A stretch of 64,000 nucleotides of DNA, taken from the NCBI RefSeq assembly GCF_024298765.1, contig NZ_CP101210.1; one strand, given 5' to 3'. Below, one piece after another: positions 16,720-54,897 of this stretch. The position numbers were made by a program, and so were the translations under genes. Under the pieces are notes generated by a model. It had not been told where the DNA came from. It saw nothing but the letters and a program-made list of their open reading frames with translations, and ran no database searches. Each line of letters opens with the position of its first letter. Within the stretch, counting starts at the first letter, position 1. Source of the stretch: Escherichia coli (GTDB taxonomy: Bacteria > Pseudomonadota > Gammaproteobacteria > Enterobacterales > Enterobacteriaceae).

Positions 16720-17754
16720 ATGGAAATTCGCATAATGCTATTTATATTAATGATGATGGTTATGCCTGTGAGCTATGCGGCATGTTATAGTGAGTTATCT
16801 GTTCAGCACAACTTGGTTGTTCAGGGGGATTTTGCACTTACTCAAACACAAATGGCGACATATGAGCATAATTTTAATGATTCGTCATGCGTAAGTACAA
16901 ATACTATCACCCCTATGAGCCCGTCGGATATTATTGTTGGACTTTATAACGATACCATAAAATTAAATTTACATTTTGAATGGACCAATAAAAACAACAT
17001 CACGTTGTCAAATAATCAGACCAGTTTCACCAGTGGTTATTCAGTTACGGTGACACCTGCGGCCAGTAATGCAAAAGTGAATGTTTCTGCGGGGGGCGGC
17101 GGTTCAGTGATGATTAATGGTGTTGCGACATTATCCAGTGCTTCATCATCGACACGCGGGAGTGCCGCAGTACAATTTCTACTGTGTTTATTAGGTGGCA
17201 AGTCATGGGATGCATGTGTAAATAGCTACAGAAATGCATTGGCACAAAATGCAGGTGTCTATTCCTTTAATCTGACATTGTCATACAACCCGATAACCAC
17301 AACCTGCAAACCGGACGATTTATTAATTACTTTAGACAGTATTCCCGTTTCACAATTACCAGCCACAGGTAACAAAGCAACAATAAATAGTAAACAAGGG
17401 GATATTATTCTGCGTTGTAAAAATTTATTAGGTCAACAAAATCAAACATCACGGAAAATGCAGGTGTATTTATCAAGTTCTGACTTGTTAACCAACAGCA
17501 ACACAATACTGAAAGGTGCGGAAGATAATGGCGTAGGATTTATTCTTGAAAGTAATGGTTCGTCAGTCACACTTTTAAATATCACTAACAGCAGTAAAGG
17601 ATACACAAATTTAAAAGAAATTGCGGCAAAGTCAAAACTTACAGATACAACGGTTTCAATTCCGATAACAGCCAGTTACTACGTCTACGATACAAACAAA
17701 GTTAAATCTGGCGCACTGGAGGCAACCGCATTAATCAACGTGAAATACGACTAA
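16720..17754 (+). CDS. yehA: Fimbrial adhesin-like subunit
   Basis: 344 aa, signal peptide; last gene of the operon. Confidence 0.8.
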   Translation: MEIRIMLFILMMMVMPVSYAACYSELSVQHNLVVQGDFALTQTQMATYEHNFNDSSCVSTNTITPMSPSDIIVGLYNDTIKLNLHFEWTNKNNITLSNNQTSFTSGYSVTVTPAASNAKVNVSAGGGGSVMINGVATLSSASSSTRGSAAVQFLLCLLGGKSWDACVNSYRNALAQNAGVYSFNLTLSYNPITTTCKPDDLLITLDSIPVSQLPATGNKATINSKQGDIILRCKNLLGQQNQTSRKMQVYLSSSDLLTNSNTILKGAEDNGVGFILESNGSSVTLLNITNSSKGYTNLKEIAAKSKLTDTTVSIPITASYYVYDTNKVKSGALEATALINVKYD

Positions 17755-41776: not shown

Positions 41777-44700
41777 TTACTCGGTTACCGTTTGTTTAGG
41801 TTTACGCGAAAAACGCAGCCGCAGACGGTCGAAAAAGAGATACACCACCGGCGTGGTATACAGCGTAAGGAGCTGGCTCATTACCAGTCCGCCGACAATG
41901 GTGATCCCCAGGGGTTGCCGCAGCTCCGAGCCGTCGCCGCCCGACAATACCAGCGGCAGCGCACCAAACAGCGCCGCCAGGGTAGTCATCATAATCGGGC
42001 GAAAACGCAGCAGACAGGCCTGGAAAATAGCTTCCTGCGGCGTCAGGTTACCGTGCCGTTGGGCTTCAAGCGCAAAATCGACCATCATAATGGCGTTTTT
42101 CTTCACGATGCCGATTAATAGCATGATCCCTATCAGGGCGATTAGGCTGAACGGGGCATTGAACAGCTCCAGCGCCAACAGCGCTCCAACGCCCGCCGAG
42201 GGCAGGGTGGAGAGAATCGTCAGCGGATGTACGTAACTCTCGTAAAGGATACCCAGCACGATATACACCGTGGCGATGGCGGCGATAATCAGGATCACCT
42301 GCGAGTTCATCGTCTCCTGGAACACCTGCGCCGTGCCGGCAAAACTGCCGCGCACCGTCGAAGGCACACCAAGCTGGGTCATTGCGCGATCGATCGCCGC
42401 ACTGGCGTCCGAGAGCGATTTTCCGGTCGGCAGGTTAAACGAAATGGTCGAGGCCGCCGATAATCCCTGATGATTCACCGATAGTGGGGCATTCGCCGGT
42501 TGCCATTTAGCGAAATACGACAGCGGGATCGCTTTGCCTTCGTTATTGATAACGAACATTTTTTCCAGCGCACTGATGTCCTGGGTATAGCGCGGATCCA
42601 CTTCCATCACCACTTTATACTGGTTCATCGGCTGGTAAATGGTCGAGATTTGCCGCTGACCGAAGGCGTTATTTAACAGACTGTTGGCGGCTTGTACGTC
42701 GATTCCCAGCCGTGCCATGGTGTCGCGGTCGTAAACCAGATTCATCTCCGCGCCGTTATCCTGCTGATCGGAGTTCACGTCCGCCAGTTCCGGCAACGTC
42801 GCCAGTTTTTTGCGGATTTTCGGCTCCCATTCTCGCAGTGCCGCCAGGTCGTCGGATAACAACGTGTACTGGTAGCTGGCGTTCGACTGACGCCCACCAA
42901 CGCGAATATCCTGTACCGCCATCAGGAACAGATTCGCCCCCGGTTCTTTCGCCAGTTTTACGCGCAGACGGTCGATAATTTGCTGCGCCGTTTCGCTGCG
43001 TTCGTCGCGTGGCTTGAGGGTGATAAACATCATCCCGCTGTTCACTCGCGAACCGCCTGTAAAGCCGGTGACATTATCCACTGCCGGATCGTCACGGATA
43101 ATTTTCATGAAATCCTGCAACTTGCCGCGCATCGCCTGAAACGAAATACTCTGATCCGCCTGTATCCCGCCCATCAACACGCCGGTGTCCTGCTCCGGGA
43201 AGAAGGTTTTCGGGATCGAGATATATAGCCAGATATTCAAAGCAATGGTGCCAAGCAGCACCACGCCCACCAGACGGGTATGATTGAGCACCCATTTCAG
43301 TGACTTACCATAGCCTTGTTGCAGGGCTACCAACATGCGACCAAAACCACGCAGTCGCTTTTGCTCGCGCGGCTTGCTGGCTTTCAGCATCCAGCCACAC
43401 ATCATTGGCGTTAATGTCAGAGAAACCAGCAACGAAATACCAATGGCGACAGAAAGCGTCACGGCAAACTCGCGTAACAGTCGGCCCGGCAATCCGCCCA
43501 TCAACAGCAGCGGCAGGAACACCGCCACCAGTGACAGACTCATCGACAGCACCGTAAAGCCGACTTCGCGAGTACCTTGCAGTGCGGCTTGCAACGGTTT
43601 CATTCCCGCTTCCAGATGACGTGCAATGTTTTCCAGCACCACGATGGCGTCATCCACCACGAAACCAGTAGCAATGGTGAGCGCCATCAGCGAAAGATTA
43701 TTGAGACTGAATCCGCAAAGGTACATCGCCGCAAACGTACCAATCAGCGAAACCGGCACCGCAACGGCGGGAATAATAGTGGCGCGACCCGAGCGCAGGA
43801 ATAAAAAGACCACCAGAATCACCAGCGCCACCGAGATAATCAGCGTTTGTTCGACTTCCTCCAGCGAGGCGCGAATGGTGGGGGAGCGATCCTGGGCAAT
43901 TTGCAGATCAATCGCCGCCGGAATGGTCTCCTGCAACTCCGGTAATTTTGCCCGGATGCTGTCTACCGTCTGGATAATATTGGCTTCCGGCAGCTTGCGG
44001 ATCATCAGCAAAATAGCCGGTTTGGCGTTGGTCATCCCGGCGTTGCGCACATCCTGCACTGAGTCGGTCACCGTCGCCACATCGCCCAGACGAACCGCGC
44101 CGCCGTTGTTGTAGTGAATAATCAGCGGCTGATATTCAGCGGCGGTTTTCAGTTCATCGTTGGTCTGGATCTGCCAGCGGTGAGTGCCATCTTCCAGCGC
44201 CCCCTGCGGTTTACGCACGTTGGCATTGCTGATGGCAGTGCGTACGTCGTCCAGCGACACGCCCTGATTAAACAGCGCCTGCGGGTTCAGCCCGACGCGC
44301 ACGGCGGGCAGCGAGCTGCCGCCGACATCGACATCACCGACACCGTCGATTTGCGAAATCGTCGGAGCCAGCTGCGTCGAGGCGAAATCGTACAGTTCAC
44401 CCTGCGAATAAGTATCGGATGTCAGCGTGAGGATCATAATTGGCGCATCCGACGGGTTCGCTTTGCGATAGGTCGGGCGGCTGGGCATCCCACTGGGCAG
44501 CAAACTTTGTGCAGCGTTGATCGCCGCCTGCACATCACGCGCTGCGCCGTTGATATCCCGGTCAAAATCAAACTGCAAAATAATACGCGTGCTGCCGAGC
44601 GAACTGCTGGAGGTCATTTCACTGACTCCGGCAATGCGCCCAAGTGAGCGCTCCAGCGGCGTGGCAACGGAAGACGCCATTGTTTCTGGTGACGCACCGG

Positions 44701-44854
44701 GCAGCGAGGCGCTGACCATAATCACCGGAAAATCGACCTGCGGCAGCGGGGCGACCGGCAGCATACGGAAGCCCAGTATGCCGCACAGGGTAATGGCAAC
44801 CGACAGTAAAATCGTCGCCACCGGACGGTAAATGAAGAGGGCAAAAAACTTCAC
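41777..44854 (-). CDS. mdtC: RND multidrug efflux pump subunit MdtC
   Basis: 1025 aa, RND permease. Confidence 0.95.
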
Positions 44855-47800
44855 TTACGCCTCCTCTTCATGACGGGCAAAGCGGCTTTTGGTCCACAAT
44901 GCCAGGCGGTCGAACAGCAGATAAATCACCGGCGTGGTGAACAGCGTCAGCACCTGGCTGACAATCAGGCCGCCGACCATGCCGATACCTAACGGACGAC
45001 GCAGTTCCGCGCCGACCCCGGTACTCAACATCAGCGGCAGCGCGCCAAGCAGAGCCGCCAGGGTGGTCATCAGGATCGGACGAAAACGCAACAGACAAGC
45101 CTGGTAGATTGCATCGCGCGGCGACATGCCTTGCTCGCGCTCAGCAGCCAGCGCGAAGTCGATCATCATGATGGCGTTCTTCTTCACGATACCGATCAGC
45201 AAAATAATGCCGATAATCGCAATCACATCCAGTTCGCTACCGGCAATCATTAACGCCAGCAGGGCGCCAACACCTGCCGTGGGTAGCGTCGAGAGAATGG
45301 TGATCGGGTGAATAAAGCTCTCGTACAGAATGCCGAGCACGATATACATCGCCACCACCGCCGCGACAATCAGCCAGACAGTGCTGCCCAGCGCCGACTG
45401 GAAGGCGAGGGTGCTGCCCTGGAACTGCGTGGTGATATCCACCGGCAGATTCAGCGTCTTTTCGGTGTCCATAATCGCCTGCACCGCATCGCCCAGCGAA
45501 TAGTTATCTGGCACGTTAAAAGAGATGGTCGTTACCGGGAACTGATCCAGATGGTTGATGGAAAGCGGCGCAAAACGCTGTTCAACTTTGGCAATTGAGC
45601 TTAACGGCACCACGCCGCCGTCGCTGCTGGTCAGGCGAATGGTATCTAGCGCCGCAAGCCCTGGGGTATTTTCGGTGTTGTGCTCCAGCACCACGCGATA
45701 CTGGTTGGCCTGAGTATAAATAGTGGAAATCAGCCGCTGACCAAACGCGTTGTACAGGGCGTTATCGACATCCGCCATGCTGATCCCCAGACGGCTGGCG
45801 CTGTCGCGATCAACATTGACATACGCCACCAGCCCTTTGTCCTGCCAGTCGCTGGAGACATCAGAAAGCTGTGGCAGTTGCTGGAGTTTTTCCATCAACT
45901 GTGGCACCCAGGTACTGAGCGCATCCAGTGACGTGGCCTGCAAGGTAAACTGGTACTGGGTGCGGCTGACCTGAGTATCAATAGTCAGATCCTGCGTTGG
46001 TTGCAGGAAGAGATCGACGCCCGGCACTTTATCTACCGCCGTTTGCAGACGGGCGATGACTTTTTGCACCCGATCATCACGTTCATCCAACGGTTTGAGG
46101 TTGATTTGTAAACGTGCACTGTTCAGCGACGGGTTAGTGCCATCAACGCCAACAAATGAGGTCAGGCTTTGCACTGCCGGATCCTGCAAAATCACGTCCG
46201 CGACCTGGCGTTGTCGCTGGGCCATATTGGCAAAGGAGCTGGATTGCGGTGCCTGCAAAGTGCCCTGAATAATGCCATTGTCCTGTACCGGGAAGAAACC
46301 TTTCGGAATGAACACCCACAGCAGCACGCTAAGCAGCAGCGTGCTGAGTGCCACGCTTAAGGTCAGCCACGGATGATTCAGCACTTTCGCCAGTCCACGA
46401 CCATAGGCGGCGATTATCCTGTCGAACATTTTTTCCGAGGCACGGGAGAAGCGGTTCTGTTTACGCAACGACTCCTGGCTGAGCATCCGCGCGCACATCA
46501 TCGGTGTCAGGGTCAGCGACACCACCGCTGAGATCAAAATCGCTACCGCCAGGGTAATAGCAAATTCGCGGAACAGCCGCCCGACGATATCGCCCATAAA
46601 CAGCAGTGGGATCAACACCGCAATCAGTGAGAAGGTCAGCGAGATAATGGTAAAGCCGATTTCACCTGCGCCCTTGAGCGCCGCCGCCAACGGTTTTTCG
46701 CCTTTTTCGATATAGCGGGAAATGTTTTCGATCACCACGATGGCGTCATCGACCACGAATCCGGTGGCGATAGTTAACGCCATCAGTGTCAGGTTATTGA
46801 TTGAAAAATCGAGAAACACCATAACCGCGAAAGTGCCGATTAACGACAGCGGTACAGCAACACCGGGAATGATGGTCGCCGGAATATTGCGCAAAAACAG
46901 GTAGATAATCATGACTACCAGCGCGATAGCCATCATCAATTCAAACTGAGTATCATCGACGGATGCGCGGATATTGGTGGTGCGATCGGAAAGCACTGTC
47001 ACCTTCACCGATTTCGGCAGACTCTCGGTGAGCTGTGGCAGCATCTGCCGGATGCTGTCGGCGGTGGAGATAATGTTAGCACCGGGCTGGCGCTGAACAT
47101 TCATCACAATGGCCTGTTCTTTGTTCGCCCACGCGCCGAGCCAGCTGTTTTCTGCACCTTGCTCTACAGTTGCGACATCGCCCAGACGAATTGGCGCGCC
47201 GTTCTGGTAGGCGATGATTAGCTGGCGATACTCTTCGGCGGATTGCATCTGGTCGTTCGCGGAAAGCGTGACCGCACGGGAAGGGCCGTCGAGGCTACCT
47301 TTTGCCGAGTTAACGTTAGCGCCGGTAATGGCGGTGCGCACGGTTTCGCTGGTCAGGCCGAGGGCGGCAATCGCCTGAGCGTTAAGTTTGACGCGAACAG
47401 CCGGACGCTGACCGCCGGAAAGCGTCACCAGGCCGACGCCGGAAATCTGCGAGATTTTCTGCGCGACGCGGGTTTCCACCATATCTTCCACTTGCGTCAT
47501 CGGCATGGCGGTTGAGGTGACGGCGAGCGTCATGATCGGCGGATCTGCCGGGTTCACTTTGCTGTAAACCGGCGGGTTAGGCAGATCGCTCGGCAACAAG
47601 TTGGTCGCAGCGTTAATCGCGGCCTGCACTTCCTGCTCGGCGACATCGAGCGGTAATGTTAGCTGGAACTGCAAAGTGATAACTGACGCACCGCCGGAAC
47701 TTTGCGACGACATCTGTTTCAGGCCAGACATCTGCCCGAACTGGCGTTCTAGCGGCGCGGTAACGGCAGAGGTCATGACATCCGGGCTGGCACCTGGGTA

Positions 47801-47977
47801 GAGCGTGACCACCTGAATGGTCGGATAGTCCACTTCCGGCAGCGCCGAAACGGGCAGGGCGCGATAACCGATAATCCCGGCGAGTAAGATCGCCACCATC
47901 AGCAGCGTGGTGGCCACAGGACGCATAATAAACAGGCGCGACGGGCCGCCTGTGCTGCTCGGGGGTAACACCTGCAT
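44855..47977 (-). CDS. mdtB: RND multidrug efflux pump subunit MdtB
   Basis: 1040 aa, RND permease paralogous to MdtC. Confidence 0.95.
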
Positions 47978-49224
47978 CAGGAGAGTGCTCCTTTTTTCGC
48001 GTATTCGCGGCTGGTGGCTTTCTCTTCCGGAGTAGTGGCGCTCTGGGCTTCCACCACTTCCACTTTCGCCCCTTCGGTCAGGCGATCAATGCCGTCTGTC
48101 ACCACGCGATCGCCCGCAGAAATACCTGCACGGATCACCACTTTCTGACTGTCCTGAATGCCCGGCGTCACCAGATGTTTGCTGACCTTGTTTTCGCTAT
48201 TCAGCACCCAGACAAAATGGCCTTCATTGCCCATTTGCAGGGCGGCTGTTGGGATCACTACGGCGTTTTGTTCGGTGTCGACTAACATGCGCGCGTTAAC
48301 AAACTGATTGGGAAACAGCGCATCATCCTGATTATTAAAGCGTGCTTTCACTTTAATCGTACCGGTAGTGGCATCGATTTGGTTATCTAGACTTAACAGC
48401 GTGCCTTCACTTAATTTCTTCGAGTTGGTGCGATCCCAGGCTTCTACCACCAGCGGTTTTCCGGCTTTCTGCGCCTGCACTACGGTAGCGATATCGCTTT
48501 CCGGCAGGGTAAAGACTAAATCGATAGGATGCGTCTGGGTGATCACCACGATCCCGGTGGTATCACCACTGGAGATTTGGTTACCAACATCAACCTGCTT
48601 GAGACCAACGCGACCATCGACTGGTGCGGTAATCCGGCTCCAGTCGAGTTGCAGCTGCGCGCTGGCAACGCTTGCTTCATCAGCCTTAATGGTGCCTTCG
48701 GTTTCACTGACCAGCGCCTGTTGGGCATCCAGCTCCTGGCGGGAAACGAGATTGGTTTTTGCCAGTTGTTGATAACGCGCCAGGTCACGGCGGGCGTTGG
48801 CAAGCGTGGCTTTATCTTTTGCCAGTTGGCCCTGGGCTTGTGCTAATGCAACTTTGAACTGGCTGGGGTCAATTTCTGCCAGTAAATCGCCTGCTTTGAC
48901 CTGCTGGCCTTCCTGGAAATGTAACGCTATCAGTTGGCCGTCCACGCGGCTGCGCACCGTAACGGTATTAGCGGCGGTAATGGTGCCAAGCCCGGTGAGG
49001 TAACGCGGAACTGCCTGTTCTACGGCGGTCGCCGCCTGAACCGGGGCTAATGGGCCGGAACGCATACCACGTCGACCACCCGCTGGCGATTGCTGCGCTT
49101 GTTTCGTCGCCCCTGGGGCTGCACTCCGGGAGTCATTGCGGCCTTGCCAGAACCAGAATGCGGCGATGGCGGCGATAACCACCACGATTACGATTACCCA
49201 ACGGGATTTATAACTACCTTTCAT
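47977..49224 (-). CDS. mdtA: Membrane fusion (periplasmic adaptor) protein MdtA
   Basis: Start set at [12 protein letters not shown] (49224), 415 aa; the listed ORF extends 49 codons upstream with no RBS. Confidence 0.9.
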
Positions 49225-49277
49225 CGTTAAGAGTTTCTCTTCCTGAAACGTTTCGCGGAATGATACTAGTGTAGCCA

Positions 49278-49295
49278 GCCAATAAGGGAGAAAAA
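49278..49295 (-). promoter_or_regulatory. BaeR box upstream of mdtA
   Basis: Minus strand reads TTTTTCTCCCTTATTGGC, matching the BaeR consensus TTTTTCTCCATDATTGGC at 16 of 18 positions, about 55 bp upstream of the mdtA start. Confidence 0.75.
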
Positions 49296-49444
49296 TGGAG
49301 GAATTATGAAACACTGTCGGGAATCGTCTGAATGACGGGCACATTTGCGAGCACGCATCCAGTAATAACACAGGAAACTATTTTATCTACGCGTTAGCGA
49401 TAGACTGCTTGCATGGCGAAAGGAGGTAAGCCGCAGATTTCAGC

Positions 49445-49590
49445 CGGATGCTGAAACGGGAAAGCCCCTCCCGAGGAAGGGGCCTTAAATAAGGAAAGGG
49501 TCATGATGAAGCTACTCATCATCGTGGTGCTCTTAGTCATAAGCTTCCCCGCTTACTAAGACTACCAGGGCGGGGGAAACCCCGCTCTAC
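49445..49590 (-). ncRNA. sibB: SibB-like antisense sRNA (antitoxin of ibsB)
   Basis: Minus-strand promoter TTGACA-17-TACTTT downstream of the ibsB stop, and hairpin GCCCCT...AGGGGC at about 49465-49485 as terminator; fully overlaps ibsB. Ends are approximate. Confidence 0.5.
49503..49559 (+). CDS. ibsB: Ibs type I toxin peptide (18 aa)
   Basis: RBS AAGGAAAGGG then ATGATG...; translation MMKLLIIVVLLVISFPAY. Confidence 0.75.
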   Translation: MMKLLIIVVLLVISFPAY

Positions 49591-49847
49591 CCTCACTCCT
49601 GAAAGTATGCCTTCACGATAAGATTGTCAATCCGCAGGCTTTGTAGTCTGCGATCCTGCCAGCAAATATTCTTTGCGAGTCGTTACGCAATAATCACAGA
49701 GGAAACTATTTTATTCACGCGTTAGCGATAGACTGCATTCAGGGCGAAAGGAGGTAAGCCGATGATTTCAGCGGGACGCTGAAACGGGAAAGCCTCTCCC
49801 TGTACTGCACCCATTTTGTTGGACGATGAAATGGAATAGCCCCTAAT

Positions 49848-50369
49848 ATGTCAAAGCCAAAATACCCTTTTGAAAAGCGCCTTGAAGTCGTGAATCACTA
49901 CTTCACAACTGATGATGGTTACAGGATCATCTCGGCACGTTTTGGTGTCCCCCGAACCCAGGTCAGGACATGGGTTGCCCTCTATGAAAAACATGGAGAA
50001 AAAGGTTTAATTCCCAAACCTAAAGGCGTTAGTGCTGATCCAGAGTTGCGTATTAAGGTCGTGAAAGCTGTGATCGAGCAGCACATGTCCCTTAATCAGG
50101 CTGCTGCTCACTTTATGCTTGCTGGTAGTGGTTCTGTAGCCAGGTGGCTGAAGGTCTATGAAGAGCGCGGAGAAGCTGGTTTACGCGCGCTCAAGATTGG
50201 CACCAAAAGAAACATTGCAATATCAGTTGATCCAGAAAAAGCGGCATCAGCATTGGAGCTGTCAAAAGACCGACGCATTGAGGATCTTGAAAGGCAAGTT
50301 CGATTTCTTGAAACGCGGCTTGTGTATCTAAAAAAGCTGAAAGCCTTAGCTCATCCCACGAAAAAGTGA
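49848..50369 (+). CDS. insJ: IS150 OrfA (InsJ) transposase DNA-binding subunit
   Basis: 173 aa, HTH-containing IS3-family OrfA. Confidence 0.9.
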   Translation: MSKPKYPFEKRLEVVNHYFTTDDGYRIISARFGVPRTQVRTWVALYEKHGEKGLIPKPKGVSADPELRIKVVKAVIEQHMSLNQAAAHFMLAGSGSVARWLKVYEERGEAGLRALKIGTKRNIAISVDPEKAASALELSKDRRIEDLERQVRFLETRLVYLKKLKALAHPTKK

Positions 50370-51217
50370 AAGTACTCAACGAGCTAAGGCAGTTTTATCC
50401 TCTTGATGAGCTTCTCAGGGCTGCGGAGATACCGCGCAGTACGTTTTATTACCATCTAAAGGCTCTCAGCAAGCCTGACAAGTATGCGGACGTTAAAAAG
50501 CGTATTGGTGAGATTTATCATGAGAATAGAGGCCGATACGGATACCGTAGGGTAACGCTGTCTCTTCATCGAGAAGGGAAACAGATTAACCATAAAGCTG
50601 TTCAGCGCCTGATGGGAATCCTCTCACTGAAGGCAGCGATTAAGGTCAAGCGATACCGCTCTTACAGAGGAGAGGTAGGGCAAACCGCCCCCAATGTTCT
50701 CCAAAGAGATTTCAAGGCTACGCGGCCAAACGAGAAGTGGGTTACCGATGTTACTGAATTTGCAGTCAATGGGCGCAAGCTGTATTTGTCTCCAGTAATA
50801 GATCTCTTCAACAACGAAGTTATTTCTTACAGCCTTTCGGAAAGACCAGTGATGAACATGGTCGAGAATATGCTCGATCAGGCATTCAAAAAGCTTAATC
50901 CTCACGAGCATCCTGTTCTGCACTCTGACCAGGGATGGCAGTATCGTATGAGAAGATATCAAAATATCCTTAAAGAACATGGTATTAAACAAAGCATGTC
51001 CAGAAAAGGCAATTGTCTGGATAATGCTGTGGTGGAGTGTTTCTTTGGAACCTTAAAGTCGGAGTGTTTTTATCTTGATGAGTTCAGTAATATAAGCGAG
51101 CTGAAGGATGCTGTTACGGAATATATTGAATACTACAACAGCAGAAGAATTAGCCTGAAATTAAAAGGTCTGACTCCAATTGAATATCGGAATCAGACCT
51201 ATATGCCTCGTGTTTAA
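50366..51217 (+). CDS. insK: IS150 OrfB (InsK) transposase catalytic subunit (DDE)
   Basis: 283 aa, DDE/integrase core; normally expressed as an OrfAB fusion by -1 frameshifting. Confidence 0.9.
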
Positions 51218-51243
51218 CTGTCCAACTTTTTGGGGTCAGTACA

Positions 51244-51400
51244 CCCGGAGAAGAGGGCTTTTAATAAGGAAAGGGTTATGATGAAGCACGTCATCATACT
51301 GGTGATACTCTTAGTGATTAGCTTCCAGGCTTACTAAGAACACCAGGGGGAGGGGGAAACCTCTCCCTAACCCTCACTCCTGAAATTATGTCACTCCGCC
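51244..51400 (-). ncRNA. sibA: SibA-like antisense sRNA, 3' region interrupted by IS150
   Basis: Minus-strand promoter TTGACA-17-TAATTT downstream of the ibsA stop; its expected terminator (by comparison with the sibB copy) is where IS150 sits. Ends are approximate. Confidence 0.4.
51278..51337 (+). CDS. ibsA: Ibs type I toxin peptide (19 aa), separated from its native leader by IS150
   Basis: RBS AAGGAAAGGG then ATGATG...; translation MMKHVIILVILLVISFQAY. Confidence 0.7.
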   Translation: MMKHVIILVILLVISFQAY

Positions 51401-51557
51401 CTTAGTGTCAATCGACGGCTCTCCGTTCTTGCGAGGCGAATAGCAAAATTTTCTGCGCCGCCGGGCCTAATTCTGAAAGTTTCTTCGTTTGTTCTTATTT
51501 CATTATTGCAGTCGGTATGATACCGGACCTCAATAATTCTCTAAGAAAGGATTTCTT

Positions 51558-52217
51558 ATGAGCGAACAAATCACGTTTGCCACCAGCGATTTTGCCAGTA
51601 ACCCGGAACCACGTTGCCCCTGCATTTTGCTGCTGGATGTTTCTGGCTCGATGAGCGGCAGACCTATTAATGAACTTAACGCCGGATTGGTGACCTTTCG
51701 TGATGAACTGCTTGCCGATCCGCTGGCTTTAAAAAGAGTGGAACTCGGCATTGTGACGTTCGGCCCGGTGCATGTGGAACAACCCTTTACCAGCGCCGCT
51801 AACTTTTTCCCGCCCATCCTGTTTGCCCAGGGGGATACGCCAATGGGGGCCGCCATTACCAAAGCCCTGGATATGGTTGAAGAGAGGAAACGTGAGTACC
51901 GCGCAAATGGTATTTCGTATTATCGCCCGTGGATTTTCCTGATCACCGATGGCGCTCCAACCGATGAGTGGCAGGCTGCCGCCAACAAAGTGTTTCAGGG
52001 GGAAGAAGATAAGAAGTTTGCCTTCTTTTCCATCGGTGTTCAGGGGGCGGATATGAAGACGCTGGCACAAATCAGCGTTCGTCAGCCTTTGCCTCTGCAA
52101 GGATTACAATTCCGTGAACTGTTTAGCTGGTTATCCAGTTCGCTGCGTTCGGTTTCCCGCTCCACGCCGGGAACGGAAGTTGTGCTGGAAGCGCCAAAAG
52201 GCTGGACGTCAGTGTGA
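51558..52217 (+). CDS. yegL: von Willebrand factor A (vWA) domain protein YegL
   Basis: 219 aa; MIDAS-like DxSxS motif ([11 protein letters not shown]). Confidence 0.85.
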
Positions 52218-53501: not shown

Positions 53502-53536
53502 TTTTTCTCCAGAATCTCTGTGTAGTAAAAGTTAGG

Positions 53537-54730
<1,194 letters not shown>

Positions 54731-54897
54731 TTAGCAAAACCTGTGGAAGTGAATCATTATCAGGTTGGAATTGAATTGTATCCTGATGAAATTACATTAT
54801 CATTTTTATTCTTGAGTGGGCTCTTCCCATATAGAAATAATTATAATGGGCAGTGTTATTATTCATTGAAATATAATATTGCTGCCCTTGAAACATT

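Follow-up and report, generated by a model that had tools for sequence, protein, structure and literature searches.

The sole copy of the insertion sequence (IS) IS150 in Escherichia coli K-12 MG1655 disrupts hokA/sokA, a type I toxin-antitoxin (TA) locus in which the toxin is accompanied by a cis-antisense RNA antitoxin. In the RefSeq annotation, this copy is located between a truncated mokA/hokA and a sokA pseudogene, and on its right it is bordered by the 3' arm of the Sok terminator hairpin (...TAGTCAGGTGGGGCTTTTCTC). Furthermore, parallel IS150 insertions beside hok and ldr loci have been reported in evolving E. coli B lines (Finn et al., 2017; PMC5419217), and hok/sok loci have been described as hotspots of mobile element insertion (Durrant et al.; bioRxiv 10.1101/527788). 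Here we describe the same element in another locus with a type I toxin and a cis-antisense RNA antitoxin, ibsA/sibA, in a 64,000-nt stretch of E. coli DNA (contig NZ_CP101210.1 of assembly GCF_024298765.1; hereafter, the window), where IS150 occupies the loop of a hairpin that is the SibA terminator on one strand and part of the ibsA 5' leader on the other.

As in hokA::IS150, the IS in ibsA::IS150 breaks up the toxin leader as well as the antisense RNA and is located where the two overlap, outside the toxin open reading frame (ORF). The two alleles differ in that Hok consists of ~50 aa whereas Ibs has 19 aa, the K-12 insertion lacks a recognizable target duplication whereas the copy in the window is flanked by CCC, and hokA and sokA of K-12 are annotated as pseudogenes whereas the window retains an intact ibsA ORF and most of sibA. 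The allele adds to the known type I TA loci that an IS has disrupted and, as a single event, is ordinary. The insertions described by Finn et al. and Durrant et al. resemble it in that IS150 entered regulatory regions between genes at type I TA loci, where identical positions were hit in parallel. They differ in that hok and ldr rather than ibs/sib are listed, the material consists of laboratory populations or short-read surveys, and no target motif is stated in the accessible parts of either report.

Two other members of the IS3 family, IS1397 and ISKpn1, insert in the loops of palindromic units (REP/BIME), a specificity for which Tobes and Pareja (2006; PMC1525189), with reference to Clement (1999) and Wilde (2003), hold the transposase responsible. 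The likeness lies in a strong preference of IS3-family elements for the loops of short extragenic hairpins rich in GC, whereas the IS150 target here is the terminator hairpin of an antisense RNA and not a REP unit. IS150 also enters coding DNA such as brnQ, and its preference is weaker than that of IS1397 and ISKpn1 and looks motif-based. IS911, also of the IS3 family, inserts next to sequences that resemble its own right end. By comparison, the IS150 targets discussed below resemble the element's own left or right inner ends by sequence alone, and the two cases do not share the same geometry with respect to the insertion point. A literature search returned no description of IS150 at ibs/sib or of an IS150 target motif, although most subscription journals lie outside that search, so that the absence is not proven.

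On the plus strand of the window, the gene order is the start of mdtA (on the minus strand, to ~49230), an intact Ibs/Sib repeat, an interrupted repeat and yegL from 51558; the original prediction, which was made from the sequence alone, had correctly placed ibsB beside mdtA and ibsA beside yegL. The second repeat is broken at 49800/49801 by an element with the following features:

49801-51243, plus strand: complete IS150, 1443 bp, from reading of the sequence, with 10 substitutions over this length relative to the K-12 MG1655 copy
49798-49800, strand not applicable: left copy of the 3-bp target-site duplication, CCC, from reading of the sequence
51244-51246, strand not applicable: right copy of the target-site duplication, CCC, from reading of the sequence
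49801-49824, plus strand: left terminal inverted repeat of IS150, from comparison of the ends
51220-51243, plus strand: right terminal inverted repeat of IS150, from comparison of the ends
49848-50369, plus strand: IS150 orfA, 173 aa, InsJ-like, from the ORF list and an NCBIfam profile
50366-51217, plus strand: IS150 orfB, 283 aa, the catalytic part of the IS3-family transposase, from an NCBIfam profile
50330-50336, plus strand: A AAA AAG slippery heptamer for a -1 programmed frameshift, from the sequence and the RefSeq 'programmed frameshift' note on homologous elements

In the window sequence, the left edge of IS150 opens with TGTACTGCACCC and the right edge closes with GGGGTCAGTACA; the terminal inverted repeats are imperfect, with matches at 19 of the 24 positions, and start with TGTACTG. 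The NCBIfam profile NF033516 (IS3 transposase) is covered at positions 1-89 by orfA and at positions 93-369 by orfB, the latter with 348 bits at a cut-off of 160. The two ORFs overlap and, like the frameshift site and both ends, are intact; the best RefSeq copy, annotated as 'IS3-like element IS150 family transposase', is 99.8% identical. The predicted boundaries of the element prove exact, and the predicted CCC duplication is present in both flanks. No second IS150 copy was detected elsewhere in the window. An assembly artifact was considered separately and ruled out, given that 12 complete-genome records, e.g., LWY6, T16R, 201609 and 510016, have the identical right junction.

Deletion of IS150 together with one CCC yields GAAACGGGAAAGCCTCTCCCGGAGAAGAGGGCTTTTAATAAGGAAAGGGTTATGATG. 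This emptied site is identical to the ibsA/sibA locus of K-12 MG1655 and to the IS-free locus of strain PEC148, the kind of alignment that had been suggested along with the original prediction, and it can be aligned with the intact ibsB copy at 49460-49508, in accord with the claim that joining the flanks rebuilds a module parallel to that copy. The parts of the two repeats are arranged as follows:

49503-49559, plus strand: ibsB ORF, 18 aa (MMKLLIIVVLLVISFPAY), the intact copy used for comparison, annotated in RefSeq as 'Ibs family toxin' at the homologous place in another genome locus (L001)
49488-49630, minus strand: sibB, the Rfam SIB_RNA match to the intact copy, 142 bits (gathering score 56)
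49768-49800, plus strand: first ~33 nt of the presumed ibsA leader, joined to the ibsA promoter region; start site by homology to ibsC
49786-49800, minus strand: orphaned 3' end of sibA, nt 130-144, GGGAGAGGCUUUCCC, containing the terminator 3' arm and U tract, from the K-12 SibA end
51244-51277, plus strand: remainder of the ibsA leader, 34 nt, including the hairpin 3' arm (GAGGGCTTTT) and Shine-Dalgarno region (AAGGAAAGGG), from sequence and alignment
51278-51337, plus strand: ibsA ORF, 19 aa (MMKHVIILVILLVISFQAY), intact, identical to K-12 ibsA and to WP_010723109.1, 'toxin IbsA'
51244-51375, minus strand: sibA nt 1-132 with the promoter still attached, from the K-12 annotation and Rfam
51384-51412, minus strand: sibA promoter region, intact, with TTGACA at 51411-51406 and CATAAT/TAATTT at ~51390-51383; positions 1-28 of the Rfam model
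51156-51200, minus strand: terminator-like 15-bp hairpin followed by UUUUAAUUU in the right end of IS150, the predicted stop for sibA read-through

In the K-12 annotation, SibA is a 144-nt RNA whose ends lie 38 nt past the ibsA stop codon and 46 nt before the ibsA ATG; it maps onto the window with its start at 51375 and its 3' end at 49786. The IS splits nt 1-132, which contain all the complementarity to the ibsA ORF and its ribosome-binding site, from the last 12-15 nt, so that no intact SibA 3' end with an intrinsic terminator is left. The last 12 nt (AGAGGCUUUCCC), which in the fold of the native RNA provide the terminal hairpin with its 3' arm and U tract, are now found together with the duplicated GGG 1.44 kb away, at 49800-49786. 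On the other strand, the right end of IS150 is separated by 34 nt from the ibsA ATG, and, with 1443 bp inserted in the leader, the ORF is no longer contiguous with its promoter.

It has been shown by primer extension where ibsC transcription starts, and in the duplex with SibC, 18 nt of ibsC remain unpaired as a 5' overhang (Han et al., 2010; PMC2943612). When this overhang rule was checked, G50, G51 and G53 of ibsC landed on the GGAG of its Shine-Dalgarno sequence, matching the same report. By homology to ibsC, ibsA transcription would start at ~49768, which implies a leader of ~64 nt with IS150 after ~+33. The K-12 SibA annotation and the start site transferred from ibsC both place the IS in the ibsA 5' leader at the Sib terminator hairpin, where the original prediction had put it, with the ibsA start resting on homology.

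Although neither transcription unit is intact, automated annotation and the Rfam model call both genes intact. The SIB_RNA match to sibA (51411-51263, minus strand) scores 149.5 bits, well above the same gathering score as for sibB. The model begins with the sib promoter boxes and ends short of the terminator, and it calls the split sibA complete because the terminator is left out; likewise, the sibB match spans the promoter and the body of the gene without the terminator at ~49461-49487. In other genomes that carry the same allele, the RefSeq annotation shows an intact ibsA beside IS150 without comment. Between mdtA and yegL, the window and K-12 have two tandem Ibs/Sib repeats, and PEC148, PRO_A-1412, LR-31 and F1022 (loci L006, L018, L021 and L026) have three or four.

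Recurrence of the insertion was assessed in a set of 5,426 complete E. coli genomes, of which 2,864 contain IS150. The junction counts are lower bounds: the left-junction search recovered 67 genomes and the right-junction search 75, and T16R (L004), in which both junctions are intact, was missed by the left search. A query with the emptied site was uninformative for counting disrupted loci, since it also matches the paralogous repeats over its full length. At ibsA, the right junction of the window detects IS150 in the same orientation in 75 genomes. Apart from the records with the identical junction, ~63 genomes align to it with a 6-base gap; in EC5 and HL15, which were fetched from this group, IS150 lies 6 bp nearer to ibsA and is flanked by a GAA duplication. 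Judging by the junctions, the GAA-duplication allele is a separate insertion event.

The opposite orientation was searched with a constructed hypothetical junction, which matched 14 genomes, and the nine loci that were fetched represent nine further junction types in ibsA or ibsB-like repeats. In PRO_A-1412, the same CCC site is occupied by a reversed IS150, and in PEC41, the element occupies a CCC site with a left flank of ibsB type and a right flank from ibsA. ET76 carries it in the hairpin's 3' arm, ET82, F1022 and 2017.02.03CC between the hairpin and the Shine-Dalgarno sequence, and 14EC007 inside the Shine-Dalgarno sequence. In LR-31 (L021) and LT883142 (L023), the flanks of IS150 come from different positions or repeats and there is no duplication, an arrangement in keeping with two IS150 copies in neighboring repeats having recombined and deleted an Ibs/Sib repeat. 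The hairpin-region IS150 is itself interrupted in 14EC007 (L019) and 2017.02.03CC (L025), in one case by an IS3-family element and in the other by ISVsa5.

The ibsD repeat is affected in a total of two genomes: in ATCC 8739, IS150 lies between the ibsD hairpin and the Shine-Dalgarno sequence, and in 65COLEC, a junction for the sibD terminator that had been built beforehand from the target motif described below was found exactly. Eleven junction types are located within ~35 bp of Ibs/Sib hairpins. The same hairpin has been struck by IS150 many separate times, and the differing duplications and orientations argue against a single ancestral insertion.

In the window, the 6 kb of left flank (43800-49800) are 100% identical to LWY6, LP50-1 and other carriers, whereas from 51492 rightward (to 57243) the window differs from these carriers by ~3% and resembles PEC148 and BS74R-D-type strains; left-flank identity followed by such a shift indicates a recombination boundary in or just to the right of IS150. 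The window allele is accordingly either a recombinant or a further independent hit. The ten substitutions relative to the K-12 element lie at 50322-51100 (IS150 positions 522-1300), all in the right two thirds of the element, and the same ten positions set the window copy apart from the same-site copies in other carriers. The combination is absent from the other complete IS150 copies collected, and a divergent IS150 lineage (77 differences) has five of the ten, a pattern that suggests that the window IS150 is a mosaic produced by recombination between IS copies. Farther downstream, 2.3 kb from IS150, the yegJ-yegI spacer contains an IS5-family element of ~1.2 kb (53533-54733) with inverted repeats GGAAGGTGCGAACAAG and a transposase ORF at 53604-54584; the annotated ISKpn26 copy of PEC148 is located inside pphC rather than in this spacer.

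IS150 ends were also gathered from public metagenome, genome and viral contigs (loci L030-L129). A scan of species-representative genomes with the IS150 left end had given seven loci, three of them hok/sok, which are too few for statistics. In the larger collection, hok/sok loci, often those of plasmid R1 type, account for 24 of the 51 distinct left junctions (58 of 98 contigs), as determined by blastn against loci with a confirmed Hok ORF; the other flank, where present, encodes a Hok protein, and the insertions are inside the Sok gene near its terminator hairpin.

A short sequence, GRGGC (G[AG]GGC), recurs beside many of these elements. It begins at +5 outside the right end, i.e., after the 3-bp duplication and one base, in 14 of the 29 distinct right flanks, and at +4 to +6 in 16 of the 29, compared with a chance expectation of 0.34%; at the left end, it is found in one of 66 flanks, the window-type allele. 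At the Ibs/Sib target, the Sib strand reads GGG-A-GAGGC-UUU in sibA and GGG-A-GGGGC-UUU in sibB, sibD and sibE, and the orientation of IS150 at this canonical site is the usual one in PRO_A-1412, PEC41 and 65COLEC and reversed in the window. The motif is not confined to toxin loci: it is also present at the unrelated sites L048, L030, L124, L126 and L129 and in a P2-prophage terminator (L133).

Among the IS150 sites observed in the REL606 lineage (Finn et al., 2017), the motif fits three of the four whose coordinates could be mapped. The hokC insertions at 16,972 and 16,989 are in the two arms of the SokC terminator, adjoining GAGGC/GGGGC, and the brnQ insertion at 388,543 fits as well. Only the hokC and brnQ sites were usable, given that the published mokB and ldr coordinates are not REL606 ones (chaB and trg are found there) and the hokE coordinate falls in cusA. 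In the folds of the emptied sites, the target duplication is usually on the 3' side of a loop; coding IS150 sites occur as well, and the sequence motif GRGGC fits the IS150 sites better than structure alone.

Some targets also resemble IS150 itself. Positions 49775-49798 of the ibsA leader (GGACGCTGAAACGGGAAAGCCTCT) match IS150 left-end positions 21-44 (49821-49844; GGACGATGAAATGGAATAGCCCCT) at 18 of 24 positions, in direct orientation and 46 bp apart (empirical p ~0.003-0.004), and an R1-type hok target resembles IS150 right-end positions 31-51 (empirical p ~0.0004).

Recurrence at the hairpin is likely to come from target choice by IS150. A more general proposal, which we advance tentatively as a possibility that falls somewhat short of probable, is that GRGGC-directed specificity, possibly via likeness to the element's own subterminal transposase-binding regions, steers IS150 into the terminator hairpins of Sok (in the chromosome and in R1/F-type plasmids) and of Sib at several paralogous loci. 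Under this proposal, IS150 would be a main agent of type I TA decay in enterobacteria, and these loci, especially plasmid hok/sok, would offer the element harmless landing sites able to move from cell to cell.

An alternative to target preference is selection, whereby insertions would be favored, and accumulate at this site, if they cut a type I toxin off from its promoter but leave the antitoxin unharmed. Finn et al. (2017) interpret the parallel hok/ldr insertions of IS150 in REL4536 lines as loss of redundant TA functions, and Durrant et al. suggest that mobile elements may bring an adaptive benefit by disrupting hok/sok; moreover, the GAA allele has reached ~63 genomes, which apparently belong largely to one successful clone. 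However, the GRGGC-at-+5 rule holds at brnQ, the P2 terminator, L048, L030 and L124, which have no relation to toxins. All characterized ibs/sib insertions lie in the ~35 bp of hairpin and leader, and none in the ORF or promoter, with the proviso that the queries were centered on the hairpin and could have missed others; because an insertion in the ORF or the promoter would silence the toxin equally, this clustering counts against selection. Every insertion recovered at the hairpin is IS150, within a search that addressed junctions of this element only. Furthermore, Finn et al. (2017) note identical IS150 insertions in mutation-accumulation lines, where selection is weak. On balance, selection appears an unlikely cause of the recurrence, and we favor target choice.

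For the transcription of the locus, the following scenario is suggested by the sequence. A complete IS150 transposed into the loop of the GC-rich SibA terminator/ibsA leader hairpin, duplicating CCC, at a site that was probably chosen because IS150 seems to prefer insertion 4 nt from GRGGC, a sequence that typically makes up the 3' arm of such a hairpin. Now 1.44 kb from the promoter, the ORF of ibsA together with the Shine-Dalgarno sequence would be reached at most by IS150 read-through transcripts, and the toxin would be largely silenced. Because the 3' arm of its terminator is detached, sibA is expected to be transcribed ~85 nt into the right end of IS150 and probably to halt at the 15-bp hairpin, the only terminator-like site predicted in 49200-51600 (minus strand, stem at 51200-51166, then TTTAATTT). 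The product would be a chimeric SibA of ~215 nt, made from the intact promoter and still able to pair with any ibsA transcript; in a predicted fold of this RNA (51375-51158), the IS150 hairpin forms and the internal SibA stems are retained. Both the silent state of ibsA and the size of the chimeric RNA are predictions.

In K-12, the toxicity of IbsA and its repression by SibA are established in the literature, and published data on Sib RNAs suggest that the antitoxin would function in spite of a changed 3' end. It has been reported that SibC with a 3' deletion and a foreign terminator continues to repress ibsC (Han et al., 2010), and that a natural shorter form of Sib, without the part complementary to the 5' untranslated region (UTR), still covers the ORF and the ribosome-binding site (Wen and Fozo, 2014; PMC4147584). 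Because K-12 cells lacking sibA tolerate ibsA (Han et al., 2010), the insertion should be viable whether or not ibsA is reached by read-through. With the toxin silenced and the antitoxin still working, the allele would be tolerated and near neutral. The original prediction had offered three outcomes, namely, silencing of the toxin, truncation of the antitoxin, or placement of ibsA under an outward promoter carried by the IS; the sequence favors the first and, in the form of an altered antitoxin 3' end, the second, whereas a consensus scan for sigma-70-like or hybrid promoters directed from the IS150 right end toward ibsA detected none.

In our view, the overall explanation that is probably correct combines insertion in the hairpin by target choice, silencing of ibsA, and a SibA that is lengthened but working, in an allele that would be near neutral. 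Several observations weigh against it. The window copy has GRGGC beside its left end, opposite to the usual orientation; many sites with the motif belong to homologous hok/sok loci, which makes them not fully independent; and structure alone is a weak predictor, with a mean fold z-score of -1.6 for emptied sites versus shuffles. The position of the ibsA start is a transfer from ibsC by homology. Finally, the transposase genes and ibsA are co-oriented, and no plus-strand terminator is predicted between orfB and ibsA in the scan of 49200-51600, such that read-through could yield an ibsA mRNA without the leader hairpin.

The last point underlies the opposite scenario, in which transposase transcripts or read-through from the ibsA promoter would reach an ibsA that lacks the hairpin in front of the ribosome-binding site, the native leader hairpin and the UUUUAAU that follows it having been destroyed, so that the toxin is activated; this we consider very improbable, given that the intact sibA promoter and the whole complementarity to the ORF and ribosome-binding site imply that such an mRNA still meets the antitoxin, that the consensus scan predicts no outward promoter, that persistence of the allele in many natural lineages is hard to reconcile with raised toxin synthesis, and that strong transcription of the IS150 transposase genes is not known.

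Returning to hairpin insertion by target choice, ibsA::IS150 by itself is a strain-level insertion polymorphism in a non-essential TA repeat, and it is of modest interest as part of a recurrent IS150 pattern that is apparently motif-guided. It is nevertheless a natural allele that parts a type I toxin from its promoter and is predicted to re-terminate the antitoxin, and it is found in clinical lineages, so that the function of IbsA/SibA is open to study in natural carriers versus non-carriers. Together with the related loci, the allele points to an IS150 target rule that, if true, would explain the repeated hits in hok/sok and ibs/sib both in nature and in evolution experiments.

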